Part shown: one piece after another, positions 11,019 through 41,110 of the stretch
Position numbering within the stretch: position 1 is the first letter of the stretch
Layout of the letters: each line of letters starts with the position of its first letter
DNA from: Candidatus Bathyarchaeota archaeon
GTDB lineage: Archaea; Thermoproteota; Bathyarchaeia; Bathyarchaeales; Bathycorpusculaceae
Assembly (NCBI GenBank): GCA_963811105.1
Contig: CAWEPZ010000002.1
Span: 96,001-160,000, forward strand
Length of the DNA: 64,000 nt
Direction: 5' to 3'
Translations under genes and position numbers: made by a program
Notes under the pieces: generated by a model
Told to the model about the DNA's origin: nothing
Databases searched by the model: none
Seen by the model: the letters and a program-made list of their open reading frames with translations, nothing else

Positions 11019-12407
11019 TTACTTGAACTTTGATTTAGCCGCTTTGGACAGATAGAAAAAATATTTTTTTGTCGCTGCGTAACCCGACGCGACACCTTTA
11101 TGCCACATACGAAGTACATAGCTTGGTCGCATATAGAAGCTTGCAAAAGCTTTCTGATAGAGCTCTTCTAAATCTTTAAGGCTCAACGTCGGCGTCTCAA
11201 AAATCGGAGTAGTTGCATCATAATCGTCAAAGTTAGTTACCCTTAACCAACCGTTTTTGATAACCATGTCATACATAGGTGTACCAGGATAAGGTGTTGC
11301 AATGTTGTAGTATGCGATTTCGTCTGGGCTAATTTTCTCCGCAAACTTTATGGTTTTCATAGCCGACTCTTTCGTTTCGCCTGGAAAACCAAGAAGCACG
11401 TTAGGCGTCGGTCTTAAACCAAGTTCCCTAACCCAACCAACAGTTCGCTCTGTCATTTCTGGCGAAATTCCCTTATGCATATTATCTAAAACTTTCTGTG
11501 TTCCTGACTCAACACCAAACCATACAGAAACACAGCCCGTATCCTTCATTTTCTGCAGAAGCTCCTTTGTAACCATGTCAACGCGGGTACCGCAATTCCA
11601 TTGAATCTTGAGCCCACGTTTTTTAATTTCATCGCATAAAGCGACAGTCCTCACTTGGTCAACGGTAAAGGCGTCATCACAGAAAGTGTAATATTTTGCA
11701 CCAAATGTCTTGTAAAGATACTCAAGCTCATCTGCAACGTTTTGAACGCTTCGCATGCGGTATCTTCTTCCAAACATGCGCACGGCAGCGCAGAATTCAC
11801 ACCAGTAAACGCAGCCTCGAGTCGTTGTTAAATAAAACATGTCTTCTGCTTTTCGGATTGCTTCAAGATCCCAAAGATGCCTCGCTGGAAACGGCAGCTC
11901 ATCAAGGTTCTCAATGTATGGTCTGTCCGGGTTTACTTTGAACCCATCGCCATTTCGGACGGTAGTGCCAATAACGTCTTCATAACTTTTACCAGTAGCT
12001 ATTCTCTGCACTATTTCCAGTAATGTATATTCCCCTTCTTTCCTAACAACAATATCCAGCTCGGGACATTCTTGCAGAGTTTTCTCATTCCAAAAAGTAA
12101 CGTGGGGACCCCCAAGAGCAGTTACACAGTTCGGATGCACTTCTTTGGCAATCTTAATAATTTCTTTAGCCGAATTATATAGACGTGTAGCCGCAGTAAC
12201 TCCGACAAGGTCGGGATTACGTTTGGCAATTTCCCGTCTAAAATCATCATATCTGTAATCTGAGGCTTGACAATCAATGACTTCAACGTCAAAACCGTTT
12301 TTTTCCAAAACCGCTGCAAGATAACCTACACCTAGCGGTGGAAAAGGTGGATGTTGATGCGGTTTAGTACGATACGGTGGAACAACAAGAGTTACATTGA
12401 GCCCCAT
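11019..12407 (-). CDS. cobalamin-binding radical SAM protein
   Basis: PPLGVGYLAAVL, GGPH, TRGCVYWCEFC, FGVESG, ATPYPGT. Confidence 0.93.
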   Translation of the reverse strand: MGLNVTLVVPPYRTKPHQHPPFPPLGVGYLAAVLEKNGFDVEVIDCQASDYRYDDFRREIAKRNPDLVGVTAATRLYNSAKEIIKIAKEVHPNCVTALGGPHVTFWNEKTLQECPELDIVVRKEGEYTLLEIVQRIATGKSYEDVIGTTVRNGDGFKVNPDRPYIENLDELPFPARHLWDLEAIRKAEDMFYLTTTRGCVYWCEFCAAVRMFGRRYRMRSVQNVADELEYLYKTFGAKYYTFCDDAFTVDQVRTVALCDEIKKRGLKIQWNCGTRVDMVTKELLQKMKDTGCVSVWFGVESGTQKVLDNMHKGISPEMTERTVGWVRELGLRPTPNVLLGFPGETKESAMKTIKFAEKISPDEIAYYNIATPYPGTPMYDMVIKNGWLRVTNFDDYDATTPIFETPTLSLKDLEELYQKAFASFYMRPSYVLRMWHKGVASGYAATKKYFFYLSKAAKSKFK

Positions 12408-12514
12408 TATTCTCTTTCCTAAAGCTTTTTATCTTCCGCAAATACAGAGCGCCAAATCTTTAAAGCTTTCGAAAATGCACCAACCCAACGCTCAAAGAGC
12501 AGAATTTGTGGAAA

Positions 12515-13516
12515 TTAAAGTGGCAATCCCCAAAAGAATGGCCAGTAAAGCCCAACTACCACAATTATGGGCAAAACCAAGAGAATACAAAGTATTATAG
12601 ATAAGTCACGAATTTTTAAGGAGCGCAAAATCTTGTCTGCCGAAATTACTTCAATGGTGTCTCCGACAGTGTATCTTCCAGGCTTTTCCAACTGCACGTG
12701 CAAGGCACCTGCGATAGCTGCCATTTGCCATCCATGGTTTCTGCTTTGCACTCGTTTGTGGTCTCGGCGTGCGATTTTCCAAGCGTTTTTGTAATCGTCG
12801 CCTAAAATTGCCGCAGAAATAATCATTAGTGCCGTTGTAAATCGTGATGGAACGTAATTGATTATTGTGTCCAAGTTAGCAGAGAACCAACCCGTATTCA
12901 GATGCTCTTTATCTTTGAAACCAACCATACCATCCAATGTATTAACCGCGCGAAAAGCCACAGCGCCCGGCAAACCAAAAAAAGCAAAATAGATAAATGG
13001 CGATAGTTTAAAGTCAGTCAGGTTTTCAACCATTGATTCTATGACGGCTGAACCGATTTGTGGACCTGTTAGTAGGCTGGGGTCTCTGCGTGAGAAGTGA
13101 GCGTATTTTCTTGCCTCTGCTAAGTCGTTGTTTTGGATTGCTTTGGCAACTGCGACGGCACCGGCGGTTTCCAGCTTTATGCAGATTGTAAACTTGAAAA
13201 TTATTGTTGCAACAATTACATATGCGATTGCACCGAGAAATATGAATAGATATTTTAGCCCCAAATAGACTGGCACACTGATTGCTGCCATAACTATTAG
13301 AGCTAAGAAGACGCCTCCAATTTTTTCTATTTTTGCGTTGGCATTCTTGAAGTGGGGTTCTAAGGCTTCAGTTAATTTGCCAAGCCAAACGGTTGGATGT
13401 AGGTTGTAGATACGTTTCCAAGGCTTCCAGGGTGAAATGTCGCCGACAAATAAATCTAGAATTATGGCTGAAAGCAGTATGCTTATTCCTATTATCACAG
13501 GTGAGACTGTAATCAT
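12515..13516 (-). CDS. cbiB: adenosylcobinamide-phosphate synthase CbiB family
   Basis: HPTVWLG, ESMVENLTD, RAVNTLDGMVG, NYVPSR and SRNHGW motifs; alternative start ATG at 13621. Confidence 0.85.
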   Translation of the reverse strand: MITVSPVIIGISILLSAIILDLFVGDISPWKPWKRIYNLHPTVWLGKLTEALEPHFKNANAKIEKIGGVFLALIVMAAISVPVYLGLKYLFIFLGAIAYVIVATIIFKFTICIKLETAGAVAVAKAIQNNDLAEARKYAHFSRRDPSLLTGPQIGSAVIESMVENLTDFKLSPFIYFAFFGLPGAVAFRAVNTLDGMVGFKDKEHLNTGWFSANLDTIINYVPSRFTTALMIISAAILGDDYKNAWKIARRDHKRVQSRNHGWQMAAIAGALHVQLEKPGRYTVGDTIEVISADKILRSLKIRDLSIILCILLVLPIIVVVGLYWPFFWGLPL

Positions 13517-13728
13517 TGTAAACGTAAACTTCTTTTGGAAATTTATCCCTATCGATAACTTTCCAATAACTGGAGTCTTAGCAGCGTTGGCAGTGTCAAG
13601 CAATATGTCAATCTTTGTCATCAGTGGGCACTTTCCACTCACTGTTATAAGCTAATCCCGTGAAATCAATGTAATAGAGAAAAAGCAATTCTACAACAGC
13701 TTCTCTAAAAATTAAGGAGAAAAACAAG

Positions 13729-16269
13729 ATGAATAAAAGAAAGACTACAATAGCTACAGCAATAGTTTTAGCGTTACTAATGACGTCGCTAATACCATTG
13801 TCAAGCACAATACAACCAGTCAAAGCTCAACTATCCAAAACACAACCAAATTCTGGACCAATTCCAGCCGGAGTAACTCCCAATGCAACGGTGACAAGCG
13901 GAGCTTATCTCAGCTTTAGACCAAATCCTGTAGGTTTAGGTCAGTCAGTCTTGGTTAACATGTGGATCACGCCAGCCCCTGAAGCCATGAGAATGTTCCT
14001 AGATTTCAAAGTCACAATCACAAAACCTGATGCCACCGTAGAGACCCGAACACTTAATTCATATACTGACGACGGAACAGCCTGGTTTGAGTATACACCC
14101 GACCAAACTGGAACATGGAAATTCAAGTTTGATTTTCCTGGAACATTCTTCCCAGCAGGTAACTACTTGAGCGGATATATCGTAGCTAATTCCTCAGGCA
14201 CCGCTTACACAGGCACAAACTATTACACACCCGCATCAACTCCAGAACAAACGCTGACAGTACAGAAAGATTTGGTGGCTTCCTGGCCTCAAGCAGCATT
14301 ACCAACTGACTACTGGAATAGACCAATAAACACTGAAAACAGAGAATGGTGGGTCATAGGTGGAGACTTTCCATGGCGAGGTCCGGGAGGCGGCCCAACA
14401 TGGGATCAACTCTATCCGAACACAACTCCCTACTGGAGCACTAGTTATGCTTTTATACCATGGGTTCAGGGACCTAACAGTGCACACATTGTTTGGAAAC
14501 GCCAAGGAGCATTCGGAGGATTAATAGGCGGAGACAACGGCTACACATCCTATACTTCAGGCGGCGGTAACCCGAATATTGTTTTTCAAGGAAGATGCTA
14601 TCAATCAATCACGAAGGTAATGCCTACTACAGTTAACGGCTCTGTTCTAACTATGCCTGTAAGCGTTTGGCAATGCTATGATTTGCGGACTGGAGAAATT
14701 TTCTGGGAGCAAACAGGCGTTAGCGCGCCAACAGTAATAGAGTACTCCAAAGGCTCAGCAGGACCGGTAGCTGGCTCTGAATTCGGGATCAGTGCAAGTG
14801 CAAGCCTGGTATTCATTGGCAGCAGCAGGCTCATAAAATACAACCCCTTCACCGGAGCTGTCACCCTGAACATTTCAATCCCAGTATCATCAGCAACCTA
14901 CTACATGAACGGATACGCCTTCAGTGTGCAAACCATCAATGCCACGGCAAGTCAATACCGTTTAGTAAACTGGACAACTCAAGGAACGGACACTAACTTT
15001 GCAAATAGGATTGCAGGCAACGTTTCATGCTCCTACAGCCTTTCTGCTGACACGACGTGGGATTGGAATAGCGGCGTAGCAATTTGGACACGCACTTCAC
15101 GTGTAGCGCAAGCGCGAGTTGGAACAGCATTAACAGCGGTTAACCTCGAAACTGGTCAAATGCTATGGGACAAAATTATTCCCGAATACATGTACAACCC
15201 TATTTGCAACCTTATCGACCATGGTAAGCTCGCAGTTCTAACTGCATTGGGATATTACAACTTCTATGACGAGTTTTCAGGTCAATTACTAGGCAAAAGT
15301 GACTTATTCCCGTATCCATGGGACAAACCTGGCTTCGGAGCTTACGATTCAACTTCAGCCTACGGCATGTTCTTCCGAAACGCGTATTCAGCGATATATG
15401 CAGTCGATTGGCAAACCGGCAAAATAGTCTGGAAATACGAATCACCAAACAATCCTTATGAAACTCCATATACTGACGCGAATGGTACAGGTGTAAGTTC
15501 TTGGAACGGTGCCATTATGGTTGCTGACGGAAAAGTTTACGCTTCAAACACTGAACACACACCGAGCCAGCCAATCACCAGAGGCTGGAGACTCCACTGC
15601 ATCAATGCAACAACTGGCCAAGGAATATGGAATATAAGCGGCTCAATGGGAGTCGGCGCTGTTTCTGACGGCTATTTCACCGCATCTAACTCTTATGATG
15701 GGTACATGTACGTTTTCGGCAAAGGCAAGACCACCACAACCGTAACTGCACCTAATATTGTAGTGCAAAAGGGAACAGGCATCGTAATTCAAGGCACAAT
15801 TCTCGATATTTCACCCGCTCAACCAGGCACCCCAGCAGTCTCAAAAGACTCAATGAGTACAGAGATGCAATACCTCCATATGCAATACCCTATCGACGGA
15901 ATCTGGCATAACGAATCAATAACTGGAGTTCCAGTGACCTTAACCGCACTTGATTCTAACGGCAACTCTGAAAACATTGGAACAGTTACAACAGACGGAT
16001 ATTACGGCACTTTCAGCAAGACCTGGACTCCACCAATCGAAGGAGACTACAAGATTATCGCTTCTTTCGCAGGAGACGATTCCTATGGCAGCTCGTCTGC
16101 AGCAACCACTATTTCAGTCGGCACAGCAGCGGCAACACCAACCGCAACATCAGCTCCAGTTCAAGCAGCACAAGACACCACACCTCTTATGGCTGCAACA
16201 TTTGGAATAATAATAGCAATCGCAGTAGCCACTGCATTGATACTTCTGACGTTAAGAAGACGATCATAG
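13729..16269 (+). CDS. large secreted PQQ-like beta-propeller surface protein with C-terminal TM anchor
   Basis: signal peptide, PNPVGLGQ, LPTDYWNRPI, VADGKVY repeats, Ig-like C-terminal part, T/A-rich linker, TM plus RRRS. Confidence 0.8.
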   Translation: MNKRKTTIATAIVLALLMTSLIPLSSTIQPVKAQLSKTQPNSGPIPAGVTPNATVTSGAYLSFRPNPVGLGQSVLVNMWITPAPEAMRMFLDFKVTITKPDATVETRTLNSYTDDGTAWFEYTPDQTGTWKFKFDFPGTFFPAGNYLSGYIVANSSGTAYTGTNYYTPASTPEQTLTVQKDLVASWPQAALPTDYWNRPINTENREWWVIGGDFPWRGPGGGPTWDQLYPNTTPYWSTSYAFIPWVQGPNSAHIVWKRQGAFGGLIGGDNGYTSYTSGGGNPNIVFQGRCYQSITKVMPTTVNGSVLTMPVSVWQCYDLRTGEIFWEQTGVSAPTVIEYSKGSAGPVAGSEFGISASASLVFIGSSRLIKYNPFTGAVTLNISIPVSSATYYMNGYAFSVQTINATASQYRLVNWTTQGTDTNFANRIAGNVSCSYSLSADTTWDWNSGVAIWTRTSRVAQARVGTALTAVNLETGQMLWDKIIPEYMYNPICNLIDHGKLAVLTALGYYNFYDEFSGQLLGKSDLFPYPWDKPGFGAYDSTSAYGMFFRNAYSAIYAVDWQTGKIVWKYESPNNPYETPYTDANGTGVSSWNGAIMVADGKVYASNTEHTPSQPITRGWRLHCINATTGQGIWNISGSMGVGAVSDGYFTASNSYDGYMYVFGKGKTTTTVTAPNIVVQKGTGIVIQGTILDISPAQPGTPAVSKDSMSTEMQYLHMQYPIDGIWHNESITGVPVTLTALDSNGNSENIGTVTTDGYYGTFSKTWTPPIEGDYKIIASFAGDDSYGSSSAATTISVGTAAATPTATSAPVQAAQDTTPLMAATFGIIIAIAVATALILLTLRRRS

Positions 16270-16439
16270 ACTTTCCAACAAGAATCTCACTATCCCTTTT
16301 TATTTTTTTCAGCTTCAAATTCTATTTCTATCTCCATTTGTTTGTTGCTATTAGCTTTCAATCTAGCCGTACATTCTTATATGCACCAGAAACAAATACA
16401 AAGACAAACCAAAAACCCAAACCACGGTGACAGCCAAAA

Positions 16440-17090
16440 ATGTCTAACGTAGTTGTCTCATTATCAGGCGGAAAAGACTCAGTTTATGCTTTATACACTG
16501 CATTAAGAGAAGGATTAAACGTAACTCACCTGATGTTCATAATGACTGGCGGCAAGGGGCACTTAGAAAACAAATCGATGCTTAAGCTGGTTTCGGAAGC
16601 CATTGGCATACCCTCAATCGTAGTTGGCAGAAAACCAGATGACATAAGAAAAGCCCTTAAAAAAATCAACGCCGACATGTTGGTTTCTGGTGTCATGACT
16701 ACTCCCGAGCACCTGGAATACTACAAAGAAATTCTTGACCCTATCAACGTTAAGCAGTACGCGCCTCTTTTTGGCAAAAACCCATTGGTTTCACTAGCTG
16801 AGATGCAGCAATTAGGATTCCATAATCTTATCATCGAAATTGACGCCGCGTTGGGGTCAAACAAGAACTGGCTTGGACGGGAAATTGACCAAGGAGTAAT
16901 AGATGAAATCACCGAGTTGGTGAATAATAAGAAGATGAACCCAATAGGTGAATGGGGCGAATACCACACAATCGTCGTTGACAGCCCAATCTACAAGAAA
17001 AAAATCCAAGTTGAAAAATCCAAAACTGCCTGGAAAGGCACCAAAGGGTACTTTATAATCAAAAAAGCATCTCTGCAACCAAAGAATTAA
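16440..17090 (+). CDS. diphthine-ammonia ligase-like PP-loop ATPase (DUF71), divergent paralog
   Basis: SLSGGKDS, WLGREID and GEWGEYHT motifs. Confidence 0.85.
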   Translation: MSNVVVSLSGGKDSVYALYTALREGLNVTHLMFIMTGGKGHLENKSMLKLVSEAIGIPSIVVGRKPDDIRKALKKINADMLVSGVMTTPEHLEYYKEILDPINVKQYAPLFGKNPLVSLAEMQQLGFHNLIIEIDAALGSNKNWLGREIDQGVIDEITELVNNKKMNPIGEWGEYHTIVVDSPIYKKKIQVEKSKTAWKGTKGYFIIKKASLQPKN

Positions 17091-17179
17091 AGACAAATTC
17101 TATTCTCTTTTCTTACCTCACTCTAATCTGCACAAAGTTTTTTAGAATGTATTCGTCTTAAAAAACGAAGGCTTCTATT

Positions 17180-17818
17180 ATGAATAAAAAACTGATTGTG
17201 GTAGTGTTTTCGATCTTTCTGATGTTAAGCTTAATTGGCATTGCATCCGCCCAATTGACCGTTGGCGTGAAAGCAGGTGATTGGATTCAATATCAAGTTT
17301 CCTTCACCGGCACGCCTCCCGATCCCAGTCACTCTGTAGTTAGCGCAAACATGACCGTCTTGGGCGTTCAAGGAACAGCAATAAATGTCAACATTATTTC
17401 AACATTGTCAAACGGCACCCAACTCTCAACCGACTCTACACTTAACTTGCAAACTGGACAGTTAATCGATAATTTCATCATTCCAGCTAACTTAGCAAAA
17501 GGTGACCAATTCTACGATTCAAACGTGGGTAACATAACAATTGCAAACGTTTATGAGGGGACGTACGCAGGCGCAACAAGAACAGTTGTTAACGCCACAA
17601 GCGGCAGTAACACCTACGTGTGGGATCAAACAACAGGCATCGATGTTGAAGGCTTCTCAAGCGGCACAAATTACACAATGCATACTTTAGTTGTTGCAAC
17701 TAATATTTGGCAATCACAAGTTCCAGAATTCAACACAACAATCATTGGCTCAATTACCATCATTGGAGCAATTGCTGTCGTAACAGTGGCAGTCGTCTTA
17801 ACACGCAAAAGAAAATAA
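17180..17818 (+). CDS. secreted hypothetical protein with PEF-CTERM-like C-terminus
   Basis: signal peptide, VGVKAGDWIQY, several NxT/S sequons, VPEF then TM then RKRK. Confidence 0.75.
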   Translation: MNKKLIVVVFSIFLMLSLIGIASAQLTVGVKAGDWIQYQVSFTGTPPDPSHSVVSANMTVLGVQGTAINVNIISTLSNGTQLSTDSTLNLQTGQLIDNFIIPANLAKGDQFYDSNVGNITIANVYEGTYAGATRTVVNATSGSNTYVWDQTTGIDVEGFSSGTNYTMHTLVVATNIWQSQVPEFNTTIIGSITIIGAIAVVTVAVVLTRKRK

Positions 17819-23316: not shown

Positions 23317-23324
23317 AAATTAAG

Positions 23325-30656: not shown

Positions 30657-31615
30657 GCGATTTCTATTGGCTCTTGTCTATATGCCTTGGTTATTTTCTG
30701 GAAAAGTTTCACAATATCCAAAGAGCAAAACAGAAACTTTGTTGCGTACTCATGCTGGTAAATCATCATCTGAGCTTTCACTGGCAAATCGATTCTTGGG
30801 GGCTCAAACCTATGTGCCACTTCGGACACCTGTAAACCTTCAACCGATATGGTTTGCTCTTGTAAGCCTGTTTTTTTGGCTATGTAGTTGAGATAGGTCT
30901 GTTTCCAATCTAACTCCATGATTTCTGTAGCGGTTATGTCTACAGCTAAAGCGTCGTTGCCAGTTATCATTAACCCCATTTTAACTGGTTTGCCTTTTGT
31001 TGGGCCGTTGCCTTCGATGCCTGTCCGTGCATCCATAATCGTTAATTGTGGCTTGAACAGGGTGTAAAGGCGATAGAACACTTCGGGCAAGTATGGATGC
31101 AAATAGATACGTTTGTTGCTGGGCACGCAGCCAAAGAGGTTTTTGACGGCGCCGCTATAAGCCATAAACTCATGAGTTTTCATCAAAGGCAAATCCACAA
31201 CAGCATCAGCCTCAAGAACGGTTTTGGGCAGAAACAGTCGGCTCAATGGAGTGTTGCCTTGAAATTTTACTTCAACAACTTTATCTTCTGACAAGTTGAT
31301 GACGCTGCCTCCTGCCGCTTTCACTGCAGCTTCGACGCCCGTTTTATCGAAGGCATTCCAGCAGGGGTAGTTGAACCCATTTGATTCGCCCACGATGACT
31401 TCACTGTTCCAATCCCGCAACAAGCCGACGAGTTGTTGTATCAATTTGGGACTCGTAACGACACCAGGCAGGTATTCGGGGTGACTTAGGTTTGGCTTAA
31501 TGAAAATTTTGTGTTTGCCTTGTAGCCCTGAATTGGTGACGGCTTCCTTTACAATATCACTTATATCGTCTTTTACACGAAAAATTTTGACGGTTTTTTG
31601 ATGTGCGCCGGGCAA
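30653..31615 (-). CDS. DUF362 domain protein
   Basis: IKPN, LPLMKTH, AVKNLFG and EGNGP motifs. Confidence 0.88.
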   Translation of the reverse strand: MPGAHQKTVKIFRVKDDISDIVKEAVTNSGLQGKHKIFIKPNLSHPEYLPGVVTSPKLIQQLVGLLRDWNSEVIVGESNGFNYPCWNAFDKTGVEAAVKAAGGSVINLSEDKVVEVKFQGNTPLSRLFLPKTVLEADAVVDLPLMKTHEFMAYSGAVKNLFGCVPSNKRIYLHPYLPEVFYRLYTLFKPQLTIMDARTGIEGNGPTKGKPVKMGLMITGNDALAVDITATEIMELDWKQTYLNYIAKKTGLQEQTISVEGLQVSEVAHRFEPPRIDLPVKAQMMIYQHEYATKFLFCSLDIVKLFQKITKAYRQEPIEIA

Positions 31616-31617
31616 TA

Positions 31618-33124: not shown

Positions 33125-33757
33125 CTAATCGATGTTCATTTTGAGGCGTTGTTTCATTGTCTCGTCTGCAATCTCTAAATCCTTAATAGTGTTAATGTTG
33201 AGGAGCACTTCAACTTCTTTTGTAATAATGGCGCATGTTTCAATTTTGCCTTCTTCTTGGATTCTGGCTCCGTTAATTATGTTGACCCCTGAAACAGCAT
33301 ACCACACGCCCCTGTACTCATCAGTAGAGTCAACGGACAATCCTAAGCCCTCCCGCGTTTCGATGGGCACAAAAACCGCAAAGAAATCTTTACCGCAAAC
33401 TTCAAACTGGCTGATGATTCTATCGAGGAATTTGCCTGTAACAGCTGGGGAATCAGCTGGAATCGTCAATACGGGACCCATCAAATTGGCTTGGCGAACC
33501 GCCTGTTTCAAGTCATCATGATAGCCTTTTGCGTCAGTGTGTAGCACTTTCCATCCTTTGTTTTGGCAATGCTTCTCTGTTTCAGGCGTGTTGCCACTGG
33601 TTACAACATAAAAGTCTGAAATCTTTTGTGCGCAGACAACTGCTTCCGTGACCCAATCAATCAGTGGTTTACTTTGAAGAGGCAAAAGCGGTTTCTCAAC
33701 TGGCAAACCAATACGTTTTCCTTTTCCGCCAGCCATAATCAAAGCGGGAACATTCAT
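33125..33757 (-). CDS. cobY: CobY-like nucleotidyltransferase (second copy)
   Basis: ALIMAGGKGKR, EKPL, GYHDDL, PADSP, NINT. Confidence 0.85.
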   Translation of the reverse strand: MNVPALIMAGGKGKRIGLPVEKPLLPLQSKPLIDWVTEAVVCAQKISDFYVVTSGNTPETEKHCQNKGWKVLHTDAKGYHDDLKQAVRQANLMGPVLTIPADSPAVTGKFLDRIISQFEVCGKDFFAVFVPIETREGLGLSVDSTDEYRGVWYAVSGVNIINGARIQEEGKIETCAIITKEVEVLLNINTIKDLEIADETMKQRLKMNID

Positions 33758-34584
33758 AGTAACATCAACACGCCTGCAAGCAAAATAAGCGTAGTTGCCC
33801 TGGCCACTTCATTTGTTGCTCCAATCGTGTCGCCTGAAACTCCTCCAAAAGCATTGTTCGAAACTTTTAACATAAGAAATGCCACTGGAATACTGACCAA
33901 TGTTAACGCCACACCGATTAAGCCTAAGAATGGATTAAGCGTTAATGCAAAAAATGGGTAAGCAATTAAGATCGAAAGCAGATAGGCGACTATGTTTAGT
34001 TTCTTTTTGGCTTTCGCCAGGAAAATTGAGCCTAACCCTTTATGTGTAGGTTTCCCAACCCAGACAATTGTGACCATAGCTAATTTTGCTGAAACTTCAG
34101 CGGCTATAATTGCTCCGAAGGCAAAAAGCGGGTTAATCAAAAACAAGCCTGCGAAAGCGGTAAACTCCACAATCATCGCAAGGAGCGCCCCCCAGTAAGT
34201 GACCGTCCAAGCGTGCGCAACGGTTTTTCGGTCATGCAGATTTCTCAAGCCAAATGTGTTGCCTAAATCGATTAAGCCGTCGAAGTGTTGAAGCCCAGTT
34301 AAAACCAGCAGGAATGCCACCGTCATCGCAGAAACCGCGAGCTTAGATAGGAAATCTGTTGGCAGGGTAATGAATTGATTAGCTAGACCAAGCAATAAAT
34401 GAAGGATGTAGTTTGCGCCTAAAAAGTAGCCTGCCGCAAGTACGCCTATGAAGCCGCCGATAAGCGGAAACAGGTACATATGCTCGGCGGTGTTGAAAAT
34501 ATAATCTTCCCCTCCGCAAACAGGAATGATGGTTAGGAAAGATAGCAAATCCCTAAAAGTTTTTATAGTTTTCACAGGCGACAT
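33754..34584 (-). CDS. cobS: divergent CobS-like (cobamide synthase family) membrane protein
   Basis: LSFLTIIP, FPLIG, HFDGLID and GGVSGDTIGATNE motifs; lacks the MxDxxxGxxG motif. Confidence 0.8.
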   Translation of the reverse strand: MSPVKTIKTFRDLLSFLTIIPVCGGEDYIFNTAEHMYLFPLIGGFIGVLAAGYFLGANYILHLLLGLANQFITLPTDFLSKLAVSAMTVAFLLVLTGLQHFDGLIDLGNTFGLRNLHDRKTVAHAWTVTYWGALLAMIVEFTAFAGLFLINPLFAFGAIIAAEVSAKLAMVTIVWVGKPTHKGLGSIFLAKAKKKLNIVAYLLSILIAYPFFALTLNPFLGLIGVALTLVSIPVAFLMLKVSNNAFGGVSGDTIGATNEVARATTLILLAGVLMLL

Positions 34585-34631
34585 ATACCCTAAACTACCT
34601 GAAACAGAATATAGGCTTTGTCGTGGATTAT

Positions 34632-35567
34632 ATGGGGGAATTACAGGGAAAAAAAATAGTAGTTACTGGTGGCGCAGGTTTCATCGGCTATCATCTGTGC
34701 AAAAGGCTGTCGGATTTAGTATCTGACTTGATAATATACGATAACTTATCAAGCGGCACCATGCAAAACGTGAAAGATGTTCCCAAAGTAAAATTGGTAA
34801 AGGGAGACATTTTAGACCTCAAAAAAATGCTTTCACTAGATAAGGCTGATTTAATTTATCATTTAGCTGCTCAGGTTGTTGTGCCCTATTCGATGGAAAA
34901 TCCTCTTATTGATTTTGAAACAAACGCTAAGGGGACCGTGCAGGTTCTTGAGAAAGCGCGCAAAGATGATGCTAAACTGGTTTTCGCCTCCAGCGCTGCC
35001 GTTTACGGTAACCCAACCGTTTTTCCAACTCCTGAGAGTTATGGTTTTCACCCCTTCTCATGCTACGGTTTATCCAAAGTTGTGGGTGAAGAATATTGTG
35101 ACATGTACAAGAGCCAGTATGGTTTAGACGTCACAATAATGCGGTTTGCGAATGTTTACGGGTTAAGATGCCACGGAGTCATCCACGACTTCTTAGACAA
35201 ACTTGCTGCGAACCCAGGTAAACTGGAAATAATCGGCACAGGTTTGCAGTCTAGAGATTTCGTCAATGTGTCTGATGTGGTTGATGCGCTTGTTACTGTC
35301 GGCGCTGAGGATTCTGCTAATGGTAAGGTTTACAATTTAGGGTTTGGAACAACAACAACTATAATTGACCTTGCCAAAATGATGCTGAAAATTCTGGGTT
35401 TAGAAAAGAAGACTTTCATTACAACAACCGGTGTCTCTTGGCAGGGTGATGTCACTAAGATATGGTTTGATAACTCCAAAGCAAAGAAAGAATTGAATTG
35501 GAACCCAAAAATAACTCTTGAAGAAAGTATCAAGGAAGTTATTGCTGCGAGGAAATTCTCGAAATGA
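34632..35567 (+). CDS. NAD-dependent NDP-sugar epimerase/dehydratase
   Basis: VTGGAGFIG, ASSAAVYG, YGLSK, RFANVYG. Confidence 0.93.
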   Translation: MGELQGKKIVVTGGAGFIGYHLCKRLSDLVSDLIIYDNLSSGTMQNVKDVPKVKLVKGDILDLKKMLSLDKADLIYHLAAQVVVPYSMENPLIDFETNAKGTVQVLEKARKDDAKLVFASSAAVYGNPTVFPTPESYGFHPFSCYGLSKVVGEEYCDMYKSQYGLDVTIMRFANVYGLRCHGVIHDFLDKLAANPGKLEIIGTGLQSRDFVNVSDVVDALVTVGAEDSANGKVYNLGFGTTTTIIDLAKMMLKILGLEKKTFITTTGVSWQGDVTKIWFDNSKAKKELNWNPKITLEESIKEVIAARKFSK

Positions 35568-36451
35568 CCCGTCCAGCGCCAGCAAGAGGATTGATCGCTC
35601 TGTTGCGTCTTCCCTACTGGCTGATGACTGGCGGTTTATCGCTTCTAACAGCTTTTGCCATCTCAAAAAATCCCCTCAACCTCAGCATACCTACTCTTGT
35701 GTTGATTTTCTTCTCCATGGCACTTATCACTTCAGCAGGCTTCGCAATCAACGACTACTTTGATAGAGAAAGCGACGCGGTAATCAAACCAAAACGTCCT
35801 ATCCCTTCAGGTGCCCTTTCACTTAAGCAAGTGATCACTATTTCTGGCGTGCTTTTCTCTGTAGGCTTGGTTATGGCTGCTTACATTAATTGGCTAAGCT
35901 TTGCAATTATCGCTGTGGATTCTGTATTGCTTTTGATCTATTCAATTCTTGTTAAGCGCAAATCTGGTTTTGTCGCTAACGTTTTGATTGGCATTTTAAC
36001 TGGAACTGCTTTTCTGTTTGGAGAAGCAACCATCTCCGTCCCTCCAACAATAAGCTTGATTTCCCTAAGTCTATACCCAATAGCTTTCGGAACAATCGGC
36101 GGCAACATCCTGCGCGATGTTCTTAGCCTTGAAGGCGATCAAAAAGTTAGTTATCCAACACTTCCCCAAAAAATCGGCATCACTGGTTCAACCAAAGCAG
36201 CTGCGGTTTTCTTCACATTAACCGGTGTGCTTGCGCCTCTTCCCATCTTCATAGGCAACTTTGGTATTTACTACTTGCCCTTCATTCTCTTGTGGAGTGT
36301 TCTACTAGTTTACTGTTCAATACGCCTTGTAACTGCTTCTTCAACGATAGCCAATATTCGGAAATATGAGCGGCTTGTTACTATGTCGATGATTTTGCTT
36401 CCATTAGCATTAATAATTCAGGCGATATCTCGCATACTTGGAGGGGCTTAA
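35564..36451 (+). CDS. UbiA-family prenyltransferase, DGGGP-synthase-like
   Basis: NDYFDRESDAVIKPKRPIPSG, second motif RDVLSLEGD..TLP, many TM helices. Confidence 0.85.
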   Translation: MTRPAPARGLIALLRLPYWLMTGGLSLLTAFAISKNPLNLSIPTLVLIFFSMALITSAGFAINDYFDRESDAVIKPKRPIPSGALSLKQVITISGVLFSVGLVMAAYINWLSFAIIAVDSVLLLIYSILVKRKSGFVANVLIGILTGTAFLFGEATISVPPTISLISLSLYPIAFGTIGGNILRDVLSLEGDQKVSYPTLPQKIGITGSTKAAAVFFTLTGVLAPLPIFIGNFGIYYLPFILLWSVLLVYCSIRLVTASSTIANIRKYERLVTMSMILLPLALIIQAISRILGGA

Positions 36452-37919
36452 CGTAAGCAAAACAAAGAGTGTCTGTCCTGAATGCCAGAAAAAAATCGAT
36501 GCCCAATTAACGCAGGCTAACGGAAAAATCAAAATTACCAAGCAATGCCTCGAACACGGCGATTTTGAAGCTACGCATTGGCAAAGCCTAAGCGTATACA
36601 ATCACATGCAAACCTACGACACCTTCCAGTATCTTGGTGACTTGAATGCACCAAAAGACCCCGAAGGCTGCCCCTACGTCTGCGAAACCTGCAACAATCA
36701 TGCTTCAGGCACGGTCATAGGCGTTATTGACGTAACTAAACGTTGCAACTTCAAATGTGCAGTTTGCTTCTCGACTTTTCCTCAGCAAGAAGTCGATTAT
36801 GAACCCACCAAAGAAGCGCTCATTGACATGCTTGTGTTCGTAAGCAAAGCTAACCCCAAGCCACCAGCAATCTTGTTTTCAGGAGGAGAACCGTTAGAAC
36901 GAGAAGATATGCCTGAAATAATTGGTGCAGCGCACAGACTAAAGTTTATGACTATTTTGGCGACCAATGGAACTCATTTGGTTGACACTCCGGGGCTAGC
37001 GAAGAAGCTTAAAGATAACGGTTTGAACATCGTTTATTTATCGTTTGATAGTTTCCATGAAGAATTCAACAAGAAAGTTAGAGGACGAGAGCTCTTAGAT
37101 ATTAAACTTAACGCTATTGAGGTTTGCCGTAAATACGACATGGAAATCATCTTAGTTAACACGTTGATGAAGAGTTTAAACGATAAAGAAGTCGGCGACA
37201 TGATAAGGTTCGCCGCCAAAAACACCGAGATTGTTCGAGGACTAATTTTCCAGCCCATAGCCTTCACTGGCCGAGCCACCGAAAACCCATTCCGTGAAAA
37301 CTTCCGTGAATGGTCCTTTGCGGAAGACGTTGAAAAACAAACCTTCGGGGAAATAAAAACCAAAGACCTGTTTCCCATGTCAGTTATGACTTCGCCAATT
37401 AAAATAATGCGAAAATTCATGCAAAAACCTTGGCCTCTCTTCTCTTGCAGTCCTCAATGCGGAATTGTAAACTGGGTTTACGTTTCTGAAGACGGCAAAA
37501 TGTTCCCAATCAACCGCTTTGTCAACTTTGACAGGTTCTTTAACTACATTCGAAAAACCGCTGAAAATGCTGAATCAAAAGGAAAATTTTCATTGCTGTC
37601 ATCACTATTCATGGCATCAATGCTTTCAATGAATATGTTCCTAGTCACCAAAGAAGTAGGTATGCTAACCTTGATGAAATCGATTATGCGCATGCATCTT
37701 GCACCATCTTACCAATCGCTGGGAAAAATCCGCAGACGCATCTTCCTCCTTGGCTGCATGGCATTTATGGACTCCTACAACTTCGACGTAAACCGAGTAA
37801 GACGATGCGTTGTGCACTATATCACGCCGAATAAGAAAATCATACCATTCTGCGCCTACAACAACATACACCGAGTCGCAATCGAGAAGCAATTCGGTGA
37901 AAGACAAAAGAAAGCTTAG
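36438..37919 (+). CDS. tes: tetraether lipid synthase (Tes/GDGT-MAS, MJ0619 family)-like radical SAM protein
   Basis: SVCPEC...CLEHG metal site, GCPYVCETCNNH, CNFKCAVC, CSPQCG, CMAFMDSYNFDVNRVRRCVVHY, IIPFCAYN. Confidence 0.8.
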   Translation: MEGLNVSKTKSVCPECQKKIDAQLTQANGKIKITKQCLEHGDFEATHWQSLSVYNHMQTYDTFQYLGDLNAPKDPEGCPYVCETCNNHASGTVIGVIDVTKRCNFKCAVCFSTFPQQEVDYEPTKEALIDMLVFVSKANPKPPAILFSGGEPLEREDMPEIIGAAHRLKFMTILATNGTHLVDTPGLAKKLKDNGLNIVYLSFDSFHEEFNKKVRGRELLDIKLNAIEVCRKYDMEIILVNTLMKSLNDKEVGDMIRFAAKNTEIVRGLIFQPIAFTGRATENPFRENFREWSFAEDVEKQTFGEIKTKDLFPMSVMTSPIKIMRKFMQKPWPLFSCSPQCGIVNWVYVSEDGKMFPINRFVNFDRFFNYIRKTAENAESKGKFSLLSSLFMASMLSMNMFLVTKEVGMLTLMKSIMRMHLAPSYQSLGKIRRRIFLLGCMAFMDSYNFDVNRVRRCVVHYITPNKKIIPFCAYNNIHRVAIEKQFGERQKKA

Positions 37920-38005
37920 TTAAGAAGCCTTAAACTTGACAACCTTTTTGCTTAGTCTGGTTAGAAAACAGACGCTAACAAGTTGAATTGAAGTATTCTA
38001 TTTTA

Positions 38006-38527
38006 TTAACTGGAAACTTGTATGTTTAAGACGCAGTAGTTATTGGTAAACTCGTAGGTCGATGTGTCAGGGTTTAAGCGCCAGAGTTCAAAAATAACCG
38101 AGTAACTTCCCACCTGATTTTCAGTAATTGTTTGTAAGCTTTGCCAAGATTTCCCGTTCTCCAACGTTATTGTTGTGGTGTTGATAGCTGGGGTATTAAC
38201 TGGTATGGTGGACAGGTTTGGAGTGATTTTAGTTAAGACTTGAAATTGTGTAGTGGCTCCCCTGTGGTTTTCAACGGCTAGCCACACACTAAATGTGCTG
38301 TTGTAGTTAGCCACTAGCGTGGCAGGGTAATTATCAGCGGTTTTCTGGGTGTCGAGGAGGTAAATTGTGCTGTAGCCTTCTGGTTTAGCTGGGAACGCTA
38401 TAAAGTAGACTGCAGCTACTACAGAAACAATAATTAAAACAACAAAGATGGCGATTACGATGCCTTTATCATCGTTTATGCCGATTTTCCTTCCAATGCT
38501 GTTGACACGTTCTAATCGTATTTGCAT
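38006..38527 (-). CDS. DUF1616-like membrane-anchored protein
   Basis: one TM helix then EGYSTIYLL, ADNYP, VENH and VIFELW. Confidence 0.7.
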   Translation of the reverse strand: MQIRLERVNSIGRKIGINDDKGIVIAIFVVLIIVSVVAAVYFIAFPAKPEGYSTIYLLDTQKTADNYPATLVANYNSTFSVWLAVENHRGATTQFQVLTKITPNLSTIPVNTPAINTTTITLENGKSWQSLQTITENQVGSYSVIFELWRLNPDTSTYEFTNNYCVLNIQVSS

Positions 38528-39206
38528 CTAGAAGCCCCTTAAATATAGTGCTAAATATCTCAATCCCTGACTTAAATGGTTTAAGCTTAGTTTTCCCATA
38601 TTTTCTGGCTTTGTAAGTGGTGGGGATTTCAACCATGTTGTAGCCTTCTTTAGCGAATCCGATAAGCATCTCCGTAGCGTAAGCCATGTCATTCTCTTTT
38701 AACTCTACTCTATCAATGGCATCATGAGATATCGCTCGAAACCCCGATTGGCTGTCACTTAAGAATTGGCTATAGAAGAAGTCAAAAGTAAACGTGATTA
38801 TTTTGTTGCCTATGAAATTTAAAAGGCCCATGGCTTTGTTTGGGTCATACATGCGTGTGGCTAAAACCATGTCGGCGTCTTTCTCAACCATCCGCTCAAT
38901 CATGCGGTTGATGTGCTTTACTTCGTAGGTTCCATCGCCGTCAACCATTACAATGATGTTGCCTTTGGCGTTTTTCATCCCTGTTTTTAGTGCTAAGCCA
39001 TAACCGCGTCTTGGTTCAATTATAAGTCTACAGAAATTTGTATCTTTAACGATTTCTATGGTTCCATCTGTTGAGTTGCTGTCAACAACAATAATTTCTT
39101 TGGGGTAGGCTAACTCTTTCTGGATGGTGGTGACAGCTTCAAGAATGTTTCCTGCTTCATTAAGTGTTGGAATGACTACCGAGACCAAATCCACTTTTGA
39201 CGTCAT
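38469..39206 (-). CDS. GT2 glycosyltransferase (DPM-synthase-like)
   Basis: VVIPTLNE, STDGT, GYGLAL, VDGDGTY, DSQSGFR. Confidence 0.92.
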   Translation of the reverse strand: MTSKVDLVSVVIPTLNEAGNILEAVTTIQKELAYPKEIIVVDSNSTDGTIEIVKDTNFCRLIIEPRRGYGLALKTGMKNAKGNIIVMVDGDGTYEVKHINRMIERMVEKDADMVLATRMYDPNKAMGLLNFIGNKIITFTFDFFYSQFLSDSQSGFRAISHDAIDRVELKENDMAYATEMLIGFAKEGYNMVEIPTTYKARKYGKTKLKPFKSGIEIFSTIFKGLLDANTIRTCQQHWKENRHKR

Positions 39207-39255
39207 ATGCATACCCCCAATATTTTGCAAAGGCTATATTGTTTCCGCAACATGG

Positions 39256-40440
39256 TTAAATAAGCTCTTCGTATATCTCGATGAGTGTTTCAACGTTCTT
39301 ATCCCAACTATATTTCTCTTCCATCATCGCTCTAAGCTCTGATTTGCGTGAGCCCCAATCAGCCTCTGAAAACTCCAAAATCGACTCTGCCATCGCCTCA
39401 GGCTTGTTAGGTGCCACAAGTTTCCCAAACCTTTGATTCAAGATTTCGCTTATTCCTCCCACATTTGTTGCTATAACAGGTAATCCGCAAGACATGGCTT
39501 CAAGTGCAACCAAAGGCAAGCCTTCACCAGATTTAGATGGTAACACAAAGAAGTCTGCGGCGTTATAGTAGAACGGTAAATCTTCATCGGTCACAAACCC
39601 AGTGAGCTTAAAGTTGTTTTCTATTCCTAGTTGCTTAGTTTTGATTTGTACGCTGCTTTGGTCTGGTCCTTTTCCAACTACAAGAAAGAAAATGTTTGGT
39701 CTCTTCTTGACTGCGATATTGGCGCCTTCAATTAATGTGTCAATGCCATTTTTGTAAACCAGCCGCCTAACAGTCAGCACCACAGTTGCGTTTTGTGGAA
39801 TTCCAAGTTTTCTGCGCATTTCCTCACGTTTTCCCGCTAGAGGTCTGAAACGAGCCAAATCGACACCGTTACGTAGCACTGTAATCTTGCTTGGTTTTGC
39901 TCCTAAACTTAAAACATAATCTCTGGAAGCGTTACTTACTGCGATTATTTTGTCTGCTTGTTTAAGTGTTTCCTTTCCAACCGCAAGGTCGTTTAACCGT
40001 TCGACTGTATCAAACAAATTGTCGTATTCAATGAAAGTGTTATGCTGTGTTAAAACAAACGGCTTAGAGTACCTTCTCGCAAGTTTGCCGGCAATAAGTG
40101 AGGTTAAGTAAGGGTGACCATGAGCGTGAACTATTTTGCTTGATTTTACCGCCCTAAGAAAAGTCTTAAAGCTGCTTACTGTCGGAATGGGGTAGGGGAT
40201 TCCAAGACTGAATCCAGTGTTAAGCGAAGGATAGCATTCAACGTTGATTCCATCAAGAACATAACGTTTGGGCGTCCCAATCCTGCTGGTTACAACCATG
40301 GGTATAAAATTTCTCTGCAGAAGCCGTGTACTTTGTTCATAAACAACCTTCTCTATTCCGCCAACATGCGGCAGAAAAGTGTGTGTAACAATGCACAGTC
40401 GTGTTTGAACCATGGAAGCCCAACTGCGTAAACTCCTCAA
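39256..40440 (-). CDS. GT4 glycosyltransferase
   Basis: PHVGGIE, HAHGH, RNGVD, EGLPLVALEAMSCGLPV. Confidence 0.92.
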   Translation of the reverse strand: MRSLRSWASMVQTRLCIVTHTFLPHVGGIEKVVYEQSTRLLQRNFIPMVVTSRIGTPKRYVLDGINVECYPSLNTGFSLGIPYPIPTVSSFKTFLRAVKSSKIVHAHGHPYLTSLIAGKLARRYSKPFVLTQHNTFIEYDNLFDTVERLNDLAVGKETLKQADKIIAVSNASRDYVLSLGAKPSKITVLRNGVDLARFRPLAGKREEMRRKLGIPQNATVVLTVRRLVYKNGIDTLIEGANIAVKKRPNIFFLVVGKGPDQSSVQIKTKQLGIENNFKLTGFVTDEDLPFYYNAADFFVLPSKSGEGLPLVALEAMSCGLPVIATNVGGISEILNQRFGKLVAPNKPEAMAESILEFSEADWGSRKSELRAMMEEKYSWDKNVETLIEIYEELI

Positions 40441-40618
40441 TCAACATAGTATTATAATCTTATGGAAAAACAAATTTGAACCCAAAAAAGACTAAAAGGT
40501 CTACTTTTAGTTGCCTAAAACATAAAACAAGTAGTTTAGTTCTCCACTACCGTCAATTTAGTGGTAAAGTCATCTACAAATTGATGCTCCTACCCCCATA
40601 ATTGCAGAGGCGGAAGCG

Positions 40619-41110
40619 TTACGGTTTTATTCCTGCCTTTTTTATAGCTTGCGTATATACATTTGAAGATACGCCAGCAACCAAAGCCCCGATAGCATCA
40701 TTTGTCAAAGGAGGCAGCTTCTTTAAAATGCCTGGTTTAGCTTGGTCAAACCGCACAAACTCAAACATGCCTCTTGACCCGCCGATGTAAGTGGCAATCG
40801 CTATCCCGATCAATTCATCAGCCACAAGTCCCGGTCTGCCTAGAAACCGTTCCTTCGTCAATCCGGGAATCAAACCTTTCTCTGCATCCTCTTGAGCACG
40901 GAACGCAGCCACGATAAGTGTGGAAACGTTGACGTCTGTTAAAACATCAAGGAACTCTTCCCTGAGCATTCCCGAGGCTTTTTCCTCGTTTTCTACTCCT
41001 GGGTGAGGCACGTACATTTCAAGAGCCGCATGAATTAGGCTTTTTAGGGAAATATCGCGTTTTTCCAAGTACTCTAGCAACGGGGGCGCTTCTCTACTCA
41101 TGTTGTCCAT
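40619..41110 (-). CDS. cobZ: archaeal alpha-ribazole-phosphate phosphatase CobZ (PgpA-like fold)
   Basis: DVNV, LVADELIG, FEFVRFDQAKPGIL, DAIGALVAG. Confidence 0.8.
   Translation of the reverse strand: MDNMSREAPPLLEYLEKRDISLKSLIHAALEMYVPHPGVENEEKASGMLREEFLDVLTDVNVSTLIVAAFRAQEDAEKGLIPGLTKERFLGRPGLVADELIGIAIATYIGGSRGMFEFVRFDQAKPGILKKLPPLTNDAIGALVAGVSSNVYTQAIKKAGIKP

Follow-up and report, generated by a model that had tools for sequence, protein, structure and literature searches.

The interval at positions 11019-41110 of a 64,000-nucleotide window (the whole stretch of DNA that was analyzed, C2:96001-160000) from a bathyarchaeal genome (G000; 3.49 Mb, 15 contigs, 96.65% complete) holds most of a lineage-restricted accessory island, a real genetic unit that centers on a second gene for a tetraether lipid synthase (Tes2). 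From the gene families, operons, paralogy, linkage and co-inheritance, all of which are direct observations, we infer with about even confidence that the island makes and tailors a specialised isoprenoid ether lipid or glycolipid. This reading is based on a Tes homologue at the family cut-off, a partner enzyme (UbiA2) resembling digeranylgeranylglyceryl phosphate synthase (DGGGPS), a radical S-adenosylmethionine (SAM) enzyme with a SPASM domain and Gms-type architecture, lineage-specific B12-binding radical SAM enzymes, and a nucleotide-sugar epimerase together with five glycosyltransferases (GTs).

Open reading frames (ORFs) were called across the window, the predicted proteins were scanned with Pfam and NCBIfam profiles, and selected proteins were compared with the PDB. 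The comparison sample comprised 200 further Bathyarchaeia genomes. Gene types were called at identities of at least 45% (Tes2), at least 52% (B12-binding radical SAM enzyme "e") and at least 54% (SPASM enzyme), and such identity thresholds were set after gaps in the identity lists were visible. Ten loci were compared gene by gene, and 48 more with full 10-kb flanks were taken from 80 Tes2-bearing loci; these 48 are all close kin (Tes2 identity 71-94%) and not independent of one another.

Co-inheritance of the island in Bathyarchaeia

The Tes2 type is present in 24 of the 200 genomes, namely in 10 of 11 from the same genus, in nine from four other genera of family f1, and in all five from genus g20 of family f5. 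The other Tes matches listed for the sample are Tes1-like (34-42% identity). A gene of the CobS1 type, one of several cobamide-loop paralogues in the island, lies within 6 kb of Tes2 in 23 of the 24 Tes2 genomes (the assembly of the 24th is fragmented) and is found in 0 of the 176 others. Island-type SPASM enzymes are encoded by all 24, in 19 cases on the Tes2 contig within 20 kb, and by 0 of the 176 others. B12-binding radical SAM enzymes "a", "c" and "d" form one type with two to five copies in each of the 24 genomes; outside them, we found a partial match of 59% identity in genome G151 and at most 43% identity elsewhere. Type "e" occurs in 23 of the 24 and in 0 of 176, type "b" in 23 of the 24 and otherwise in G151 only (0 of the remaining 175), and the CbiB1 type in 23 of the 24 and otherwise likewise in G151 only. 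The latter genome, from the same genus, has an adjacent CbiB1-B12b pair and a partial a/d-type gene (C21:8446-10929), with no Tes2, CobS or island SPASM gene; these genes may be left over from an island, or the rest may be missing from the 90%-complete assembly.

The housekeeping synthase, Tes1, served as a control. Its identity to G000 falls smoothly from 83-74% within f1 (74% in genus g5) to 70-71% in g19 and 68-70% in g20. The SPASM enzyme behaves differently, with 41-45% identity in Tes2-less f1 genera (41-42% in g5), 41% in g19 and 54-56% in the Tes2-bearing g20. Thus, the island type does not simply track phylogeny. It constitutes a distinct subtype, found at 54% identity or more in Tes2 genomes only and at no more than 48% elsewhere. 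Tes2 itself diverges faster than Tes1 (45-47% versus 68-70% identity to g20).

All ten loci compared gene by gene contain CobY1-CobS1, SDR-UbiA2-Tes2 (SDR, short-chain dehydrogenase/reductase) and DUF1616-GT2-GT4. The g20 genome G090 has the same genes in a different order, and in some genomes the SPASM-DUF362 pair has moved to the opposite side of Tes2 with its adjacency kept. Among the 48 full-flank loci, CobS1, SDR and UbiA2 are present in 48, the SPASM gene in 40, the right-hand GT2 and GT4 in 38, the CobZ-like gene in 33, and the GT2-GT2-GT4 operon in 28-36. The island is contiguous over 30-55 kb in many relatives; in at least nine genomes, a single stretch of 35-55 kb contains every part, and in genera g3 and g7 the parts are spread over two or three contigs. 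An earlier note on this DNA had proposed a co-located lipid cluster and named lack of conservation in relatives as a ground for giving it up; as the Tes2-linked types recur in 23-24 of 24 genomes, relatives do share the block and that ground falls away.

GC content is even across the region (0.41-0.46, with no step), and we therefore dropped horizontal transfer as a proposal based on composition. Tes2 loci of 81-85% identity also occur in records with the titles Candidatus Acidoferrum sp., Methanocella sp., Limnocylindrales bacterium and "Nitrososphaerota archaeon" (L107, L135, L139; L111, L125, L128, L133, L138); binning or labelling errors are a likelier source of these titles than transfer.

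The Tes2 operon and the radical SAM enzymes

Tes2 is the last gene of a three-gene operon in which the SDR and UbiA2 genes overlap by 4 nt and the UbiA2 and Tes2 genes by 14 nt; the three genes occur together in all 48 full-flank loci and all ten compared loci. The coupling of an epimerase, a UbiA protein and a Tes-like protein described in the earlier note is thus real, and the last protein does reach the NCBIfam cut-off for Tes. With the model for tetraether lipid synthase (NF045702), Tes2 scores a borderline 454.8 bits against a cut-off of 450 (454.4 in the genome-wide search). Only one other G000 protein exceeds this cut-off, namely Tes1 (668.3 bits, C2:32648-34069). Tes2 is a second, divergent paralogue of this canonical synthase, which lies 98 kb away and with which it shares 38% identity. 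Tes2 aligns with the Methanocaldococcus jannaschii structure 7tol_A with 368.4 bits (E 5e-109; residues 7-487 on chain positions 23-505), and the alignment retains the CxxC, GCPYxCxxCxxH, CX3CX2C and C-terminal Cys motifs. The N-terminal zinc ribbon (PF23545) is also recognized (E 8.5e-15). Tes2 therefore resembles the known glycerol dialkyl glycerol tetraether/macrocyclic archaeol synthases (M. jannaschii MJ0619, 7tol; M. acetivorans MA_1486) in full length, in PF23545, in its radical SAM and Cys motifs and in reaching the NCBIfam cut-off. It differs from them in being a second copy, only 4.8 bits above the cut-off and restricted to 24 of 200 genomes, and in always following UbiA and SDR genes beside CobS1/CobY1.

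UbiA2 was described earlier as DGGGPS-like, and DGGGPS does provide both its nearest solved structure (6m31, 107.5 bits, against 52.7 bits for chlorophyll synthase) and its nearest NCBIfam models. It shares the first Asp-rich motif of DGGGPS (NDxxDxxxD) and stays below both equivalog cut-offs; it also matches ChlG (86 bits) and BchG (74 bits). Five UbiA proteins are encoded in G000, and the copy on C9, 28% identical to UbiA2, matches DGGGPS-type models better (PRK12884, 232 bits). For the SDR, UDP-glucose 4-epimerases give the closest match (3ehe, 184.8 bits).

Five of the 11 genes for B12-binding radical SAM enzymes in G000 lie within 14.8 kb, a density equalled in 1 of 2,000,000 random placements; the clustering is partly due to tandem duplication. 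Each of the five (a-e) has B12-binding and radical SAM domains and one CX3CX2C motif, and "d" is 56% identical to "a" and 45% identical to "c". Their best NCBIfam matches are HpnJ for "a" (245 bits, cut-off 577.6), the Sden_1168 P-methyltransferase family for "b" (203 bits, cut-off 575) and BchE for "c" (249.5 bits, cut-off 481), "d" (261.6 bits, cut-off 481) and "e"; the nearest PDB entry to "d" is AprD4 (114 bits). With TIGR04190, which we take to be possibly the Grs family, the island enzymes score 55-99 bits (cut-off 500). The PDB matches included no entry for a lipid B12-binding radical SAM enzyme or Gms, the NCBIfam matches included no Gms, Gmm, Grs, Cgm or Ted model, and a homologue search for named references returned only close kin (77-90% identity) with generic names. 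The NCBIfam scan gave no assignment for the six other B12-binding radical SAM enzymes of G000. Synteny of the Ted-Hgs type was found nowhere else in G000; a possible Ted-Hgs or Grs anchor at C11:1.00-1.013 Mb was rejected, as a MetE-like protein and a class I methyltransferase, and not an AttH hydratase, are encoded next to it. A Bza-type role for these enzymes and the Methyltransf_11 protein is also unlikely, given low scores with BzaD (TIGR04385, 92-151 bits, cut-off 450) and the absence of any match to the ThiC/BzaF family (PF01964) in the 96.65%-complete genome.

The SPASM enzyme matches AhbD best (309.6 bits over residues 118-467, under the AhbD cut-off of 500), followed by NirJ2 and NirJ. 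Its invariant cysteines are C127, C131 and C134 of the radical SAM motif together with C378, C396, C434, C437, C443, C446 and C465 in the SPASM region. The core is preceded by an N-terminal extension of 117 aa that gave no match in the Pfam scan and is homologous class-wide, with alignments starting at residues 6-39 in 16 of 17 cases (the 17th ORF lacks its N-terminus). Gms has an AhbD-like radical SAM/SPASM core (Garcia et al., 2024, PMC11214058; Li et al., 2024) and an N-terminal extension of about 100 aa, absent from AhbD and annotated as COG4001 (Garcia et al., 2024). The designation "Gms-like" in the earlier note fits the AhbD-like core, and the 117-aa extension may correspond to that of Gms; it is a label of architecture only.

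If the island does make an ether lipid, UbiA2 would form an ether-linked prenyl lipid, and Tes2 would join the tail ends into a macrocyclic or tetraether core distinct from the product of the housekeeping Tes1 and DGGGPS. The Gms-type enzyme could then add another C-C link, while the B12-binding radical SAM types (a/c/d, b and e) might methylate or otherwise alter unactivated carbons of the chains or backbone. The GalE-like SDR would provide an epimerised nucleotide sugar, which the GT2 and GT4 enzymes may attach as glycosidic head groups. The diverged CbiB1, CobD-like, CobY1 and CobS1 proteins presumably keep loop-type chemistry (amide formation, nucleotidyl activation and phosphodiester formation), and would either build a dedicated cobamide for the B12-binding radical SAM enzymes or act on another substrate.

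Clusters of related content are known. The gms-gmm-grs clusters of Thermococcus guaymasensis and other archaea likewise have an AhbD-like SPASM enzyme with an N-terminal extension among B12-binding radical SAM genes, and the "Gmm2" homologues of Bathyarchaeota likewise come in several copies per genome (PMC11214058). The statement in the earlier note that such genes are usually scattered is therefore mistaken, as gms-grs-gmm clusters and multiple Gmm2-clade copies in Bathyarchaeota had already been reported (Garcia et al., 2024). In comparison with these clusters, the island has, in addition, five GTs, four loop paralogues, and second copies of Tes and of a DGGGPS-like UbiA, and it has no Grs-assignable protein.

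Cobamide-loop genes and the layout of the region

Four island genes (CbiB1, CobD-like, CobY1 and CobS1) are diverged extra copies of a canonical cobamide-loop set. G000 has two copies each of CbiB, CobD, CobY and CobS, and one each of CobT and CobZ. A canonical operon with CobT (TIGR00303, 406.5 bits, cut-off 240), CobS2 and CobY2 begins about 8 kb to the right of the interval, and in kin directly after the CobZ-like gene. CbiB2 (C2:322796-323773) and CobD2 stand side by side at C2:322.8-324.9 kb, near CbiC, and CbiZ is also present in the genome. Where other families have a single copy of CobS or CbiB, that protein scores higher with the canonical set than with the island set.

Within the island set, CbiB1 passes both CbiB models (NF002281, 277.3 bits, cut-off 273; TIGR00380, 233.2 bits, cut-off 165.9). 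CobS1, with six predicted transmembrane (TM) segments, misses TIGR00317 (105.4 bits, cut-off 110; CobS2 scores 127) and passes the Pfam CobS model (92.9 against 23.2). CobY1 scores 99.5 bits against a cut-off of 250, with CobY2 likewise below it (120.1). The CobD-like protein misses both CobD (258.4 bits, cut-off 290.55) and HisC (251.3 bits, cut-off 276.55), and the CobZ-like protein scores 129.2 bits (cut-off 152.5). All five belong to the same families as the archaeal loop assembly enzymes (CobD, CbiB, CobY, CobT, CobS, CobZ); the difference lies in extra copies beside a canonical set, fixed changes at invariant positions of CobS1 and CbiB1, and a cobS1-cobY1 pair co-oriented with a B12-independent SPASM enzyme.

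CobS1 proteins group in a single clade (100/99) whose stem measures 0.99 substitutions per site. Of 41 positions without variation among 25 canonical CobS proteins, they retain 28, and the fixed changes cluster right after the HxDGxxD motif. DFGD has become DLGN or DVGN in 11 of 11 CobS1 sequences, while H-D-G-D, E, K, D, N and R of the core are retained. A scan of 1.84 billion cluster representatives with CobS1 gave only 16 at E<=1e-30. Among the best 150 representatives, the motif was located in 93, of which 18, including every full-length CobS1-like sequence, end in Asn and 75 in Asp or Glu. CbiB1 retains 54 of 73 canonical-invariant positions and has 11 clade-wide substitutions.

The two parts of the set also keep different company. 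CobS1 and CobY1 are grouped with Tes2, UbiA2, SDR, SPASM and DUF362, none of which requires B12, and in split islands (G032, G142, G121, G114) CobS1 stays with Tes2 while the SPASM and B12 genes are on other contigs. CbiB1 goes with the B12-binding radical SAM genes; in at least 13 genomes, no more than 200 nt separate it from the B12b type. The pair of hyp184 and the CobD-like gene stands beside the GT2-GT2-GT4 operon in 6 of 10 loci. The earlier note spoke of the island having its own cobamide supply. Loop genes are indeed present, but they are diverged duplicates of a canonical set and CobS1/CobY1 sit with B12-independent enzymes. Production of a dedicated cobamide may fit CbiB1, and recruitment to a phospho-linked head group may fit CobS1/CobY1.

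Recruitment would mean that CobY1 and CobS1, and possibly CbiB1 and the CobD-like protein as well, were taken over from cobamide synthesis to join a nucleotide-activated phospho-alcohol to the Tes2/UbiA2 lipid or its sugar, in a manner analogous to CarS and CDP-alcohol transferases, with a phosphodiester or an amide-linked aminopropanol phosphate as the linkage. We regard this as rather unlikely. The placement of cobS1-cobY1 in an operon with SPASM and DUF362, 38 nt from SDR-UbiA2-Tes2 and among B12-independent neighbors, speaks for it, as do the persistence of CobS1 with Tes2 in split islands, the long stem and altered DFGD motif of CobS1, with an Asn ending confined to 18 of 93 motifs, its rarity among cluster representatives, and the coexistence of the canonical CobT-CobS2-CobY2 operon. 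On the other hand, CbiB1 passes two CbiB cut-offs and sits among B12-binding radical SAM genes, as expected for cobamide supply, CobS1 keeps the CobS core residues, and we know of no precedent for a CobS-family lipid enzyme, which also counts against recruitment. CobS2, moreover, is split in G000 (49724-50477), with the N-terminal 47-59 residues in one frame ending at a stop at 49901 and the remainder in an ORF at 49818-50477 (219 aa); a T5 run is close to the shift, and kin have intact CobS2 proteins of 250-263 aa. The shift may stem from misassembly or be a genuine frameshift, and if genuine, CobS1 would be the sole intact CobS in G000. An extended version, in which the whole second loop set was recruited to ether-lipid synthesis and CobY1/CobS1 attach a nucleotide-activated phospho-group to the Tes2-made lipid, seems to us just as doubtful; a head group of the aminopropanol-phosphate type, or even a corrinoid, could be what is attached.

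The families and positions of all genes are given in the table below. Both the families and the counts given in the earlier note (five B12-binding radical SAM enzymes, one methyltransferase, three GT2 and two GT4, DUF362, DUF1616 and cobamide-loop genes) agree with our ORF calls and Pfam/NCBIfam scans. In the minus-strand operon, cobS1 and cobY1 overlap by 4 nt, a gap of 82 nt separates cobY1 from the SPASM gene, and one of 2 nt separates the latter from DUF362; the starts of cobS1 and SDR are on opposite strands, 38 nt apart. The GT4-GT2-DUF1616 operon runs convergently toward the 3' end of Tes2.

Table. Genes of the island and of the canonical cobamide-loop operon in the window (TM, transmembrane; PLP, pyridoxal phosphate).
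Feature	Positions	Strand	Remarks
B12-binding radical SAM "a", 462 aa	11019-12407	-	Pfam B12-binding and Radical_SAM
CbiB1 (adenosylcobinamide-phosphate synthase, island copy)	12515-13642	-	NF002281; true start probably near residue 45-50
PQQ_2/beta-propeller/Big_3_5 surface protein, 846 aa	13729-16269	+	part of probable insertion 13729-17818
Dph6-like PP-loop ATP pyrophosphatase, 216 aa	16440-17090	+	inside probable insertion 13729-17818
2-TM hypothetical protein, 212 aa	within 13729-17818	+	probable insertion
B12-binding radical SAM "b", 491 aa	17903-19378	-	Pfam
B12-binding radical SAM "c", 464 aa	19490-20884	-	Pfam
B12-binding radical SAM "d", 461 aa	20923-22308	-	Pfam
Class I SAM methyltransferase (Methyltransf_11)	22609-23316	+	Pfam
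B12-binding radical SAM "e", 458 aa	24400-25776	-	Pfam
CobD/HisC-like PLP enzyme	26028-27050	-	NCBIfam CobD/HisC scores
hyp184, 2-TM protein	27124-27678	-	precedes CobD-like gene
GT2	27762-28460	+	first gene of GT2-GT2-GT4 operon
GT2 with 3 C-terminal TM helices	28466-29470	+	second gene of GT2-GT2-GT4 operon
GT4	29463-30656	+	third gene of GT2-GT2-GT4 operon
DUF362	30653-31615	-	last gene of cobS1 operon
Radical SAM/SPASM, Gms-type architecture	31618-33042	-	cobS1 operon
CobY1 (CobY-like)	33125-33757	-	cobS1 operon
CobS1	33754-34584	-	first gene of cobS1 operon
GalE-like SDR/epimerase	34623-35567	+	operon with UbiA2 and Tes2
UbiA2, DGGGPS-like	35564-36451	+	operon with SDR and Tes2
Tes2	36438-37919	+	operon with SDR and UbiA2
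DUF1616	38006-38527	-	GT4-GT2-DUF1616 operon
GT2	38469-39230	-	GT4-GT2-DUF1616 operon
GT4	39256-40440	-	GT4-GT2-DUF1616 operon
CobZ-like phosphatase	40619-41110	-	precedes GT4-GT2-DUF1616
Canonical loop operon, Dph6-like - CobT - CobS2 - CobY2	47945-51085	+	outside the interval; CobT-CobS2-CobY2 part at 48.6-51.1 kb

The functional neighborhood extends beyond the interval, to about 51.1 kb. Between the CobZ-like gene and the CobT operon, the 6.8 kb at 41110-47945 encode a response regulator, a GT1-family protein, a GH130 phosphorylase and a 351-aa protein without significant match in the Pfam scan; as the CobZ-like gene adjoins the CobT operon in most kin, this stretch is probably an insertion. 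The block at 13729-17818 is also a probable insertion of unrelated genes. The family of its 846-aa beta-propeller protein has 77 matches in G000, itself included, and the protein separates the CbiB1-B12b pair that is adjacent in kin. One Dph6-like paralogue (135.9 and 141.4 bits, cut-off 197.3) stands beside each loop-gene set, and a third homologue is on C11; the gene heading the CobT operon is kept there in 34 of 48 loci. The Dph6-like protein may be an undescribed component of the archaeal cobamide pathway. A CbiQ-like gene and an ABC ATPase (cobalt or ECF-type transporter) follow just past the canonical loop operon, at 52575-55029. Between the methyltransferase and B12e genes, a 1.1-kb stretch (23325-24389, minus strand) has short fragments and no long ORF, and is probably a decayed gene; its end fragments presumably resemble an aldo/keto reductase N-terminus and a Cys-rich C-terminus. 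An Rfam scan of the whole window gave zero matches.

Alternative readings and what the island may mean

Several points weigh against an ether-lipid product, which is predicted from the genes alone. Four corrinoid loop paralogues are odd beside a lipid pathway, the AhbD/NirJ-, BchE- and ChlG-like families also act on tetrapyrroles, and the GT2, GT4 and DUF1616 proteins could serve protein or polysaccharide glycosylation. None of the five B12-binding radical SAM enzymes reaches any NCBIfam cut-off, and their best matches are BchE, HpnJ, ApyD and P-methyltransferases rather than archaeal lipid enzymes. Tes2 scores 307 bits with TrsS, a non-lipid relative, and UbiA2 stays below the cut-offs of PRK12882 (164.2 bits, cut-off 296), PRK12884 (166.1, cut-off 269) and PRK12883 (105.4, cut-off 353). 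In addition, the kin are not independent, and the 24 genomes perhaps represent two or three lineages (one f1 clade and g20 of f5).

A more specific lipid product, the backbone-methylated dialkyl glycerol tetraethers of the butanetriol and pentanetriol kinds (BDGT/PDGT), cross-linked and glycosylated and with at least one B12-binding radical SAM enzyme methylating the glycerol moiety, strikes us as improbable. BDGTs are attributed to some Bathyarchaeia and to Methanomassiliicoccus luminyensis, and the island radical SAM types are lineage-specific. Our literature search also found no BDGT enzyme; its scope excluded Dong et al. (2025), which may name other candidates. However, a review names the genus Baizosediminiarchaeum as the BDGT source, whereas the specific titles among the 80 Tes2 loci are Ca. 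Bathycorpusculum (10) and "Bathy6" (3), and backbone methylation would not call for an additional Tes or DGGGPS-like enzyme.

The island might instead have nothing to do with lipids and build or decorate a second corrinoid or other tetrapyrrole, with the loop paralogues acting normally, which we consider quite improbable. The BchE-like B12-binding radical SAM enzymes and the AhbD/NirJ-like SPASM enzyme would then modify the macrocycle and a ChlG-like UbiA2 would prenylate it, a scheme to which we attach equally little credence. Such a reading remains because each of the radical SAM and UbiA families concerned also includes enzymes that modify tetrapyrroles: the best NCBIfam matches are BchE for three of the B12-binding enzymes and AhbD, NirJ2 and NirJ for the SPASM enzyme, and UbiA2 matches ChlG and BchG. 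The four loop paralogues with clade-wide substitutions would be at home in it. Furthermore, the Tes2-less f1 genomes listed have no CobS match and, except for G151, no CbiB match; thus, island and cobamide synthesis were gained or lost together. The reading is opposed by Tes2 itself, at the Tes cut-off and aligned end to end with 7tol, by a UbiA2 score on DGGGPS double that on chlorophyll synthase, and by the N-terminal extension of the SPASM enzyme, which AhbD lacks (Garcia et al., 2024, PMC11214058). The missing ThiC/BzaF gene and the low BzaD scores also make a Bza-type lower-ligand route unlikely.

It is very improbable that the region is a mosaic of loop genes, S-layer or extracellular-polysaccharide glycan GTs and assorted radical SAM enzymes held together by descent without a shared pathway: although sets of GT2, GT4, DUF1616 and GalE are common in archaeal glycan loci, the parts are split across contigs in g3 and g7, and two stretches look like unrelated insertions, the set recurs in g20 at 42-56% identity (Tes2, CobS1, SPASM) in rearranged order, SPASM-DUF362 has crossed Tes2 and is still adjacent, SPASM similarity opposes the Tes1 control, and the phyletic profiles agree in 23-24 of 24 genomes, with CobS1, SPASM and B12e in 0 of 176 others and one extra genome (G151) for the rest.

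We return to the putative ether-lipid island. Already known are Tes, Gms, Gmm, Grs, Cgm/Pgm and Ted, the clustering of gms, gmm and grs, and multiple Gmm2 copies in Bathyarchaeota. The SDR-UbiA-Tes2 operon, its strict link to CobS/CobY paralogues and the duplicated loop set did not turn up in our literature search, which covered main texts and not supplements or Dong et al. (2025, Nat Microbiol). Besides PMC11214058, this drew on parts of PMC11186832, PMC11868695, PMC12694404, PMC13003381, PMC13459092 and 10.1101/2025.10.20.683597; the available part of the 2026 review (PMC13459092) contains no mention of "Bathyarchae-", "butanetriol", "UbiA" or "paralog-".

Overall, the island is carried by a subset of peat and soil Bathyarchaeia and most likely makes an uncharacterised, unusual ether lipid. 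It offers a compact, conserved and lineage-specific candidate gene set whose modules could be expressed one at a time.

Bathyarchaeia are among the most abundant archaea of anoxic sediment, peat and soil and are largely uncultured. Their lipids serve as biomarkers, and the genes for methylated, bridged and BDGT/PDGT lipids are mostly unknown. The island raises two questions. One is why an archaeon should retain an additional Tes and an additional DGGGPS-like enzyme. The other is whether the second loop set produces a further cobamide or now serves a different purpose; the answer to this one, whichever way it falls, would extend knowledge of cobamide enzymes and of the lipid chemistry of B12-binding radical SAM enzymes. 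If recruitment proved true, CobS1 would be the first CobS-family enzyme outside cobamide synthesis, possibly yielding a membrane-anchored cobamide that serves peripheral B12-binding radical SAM lipid enzymes.

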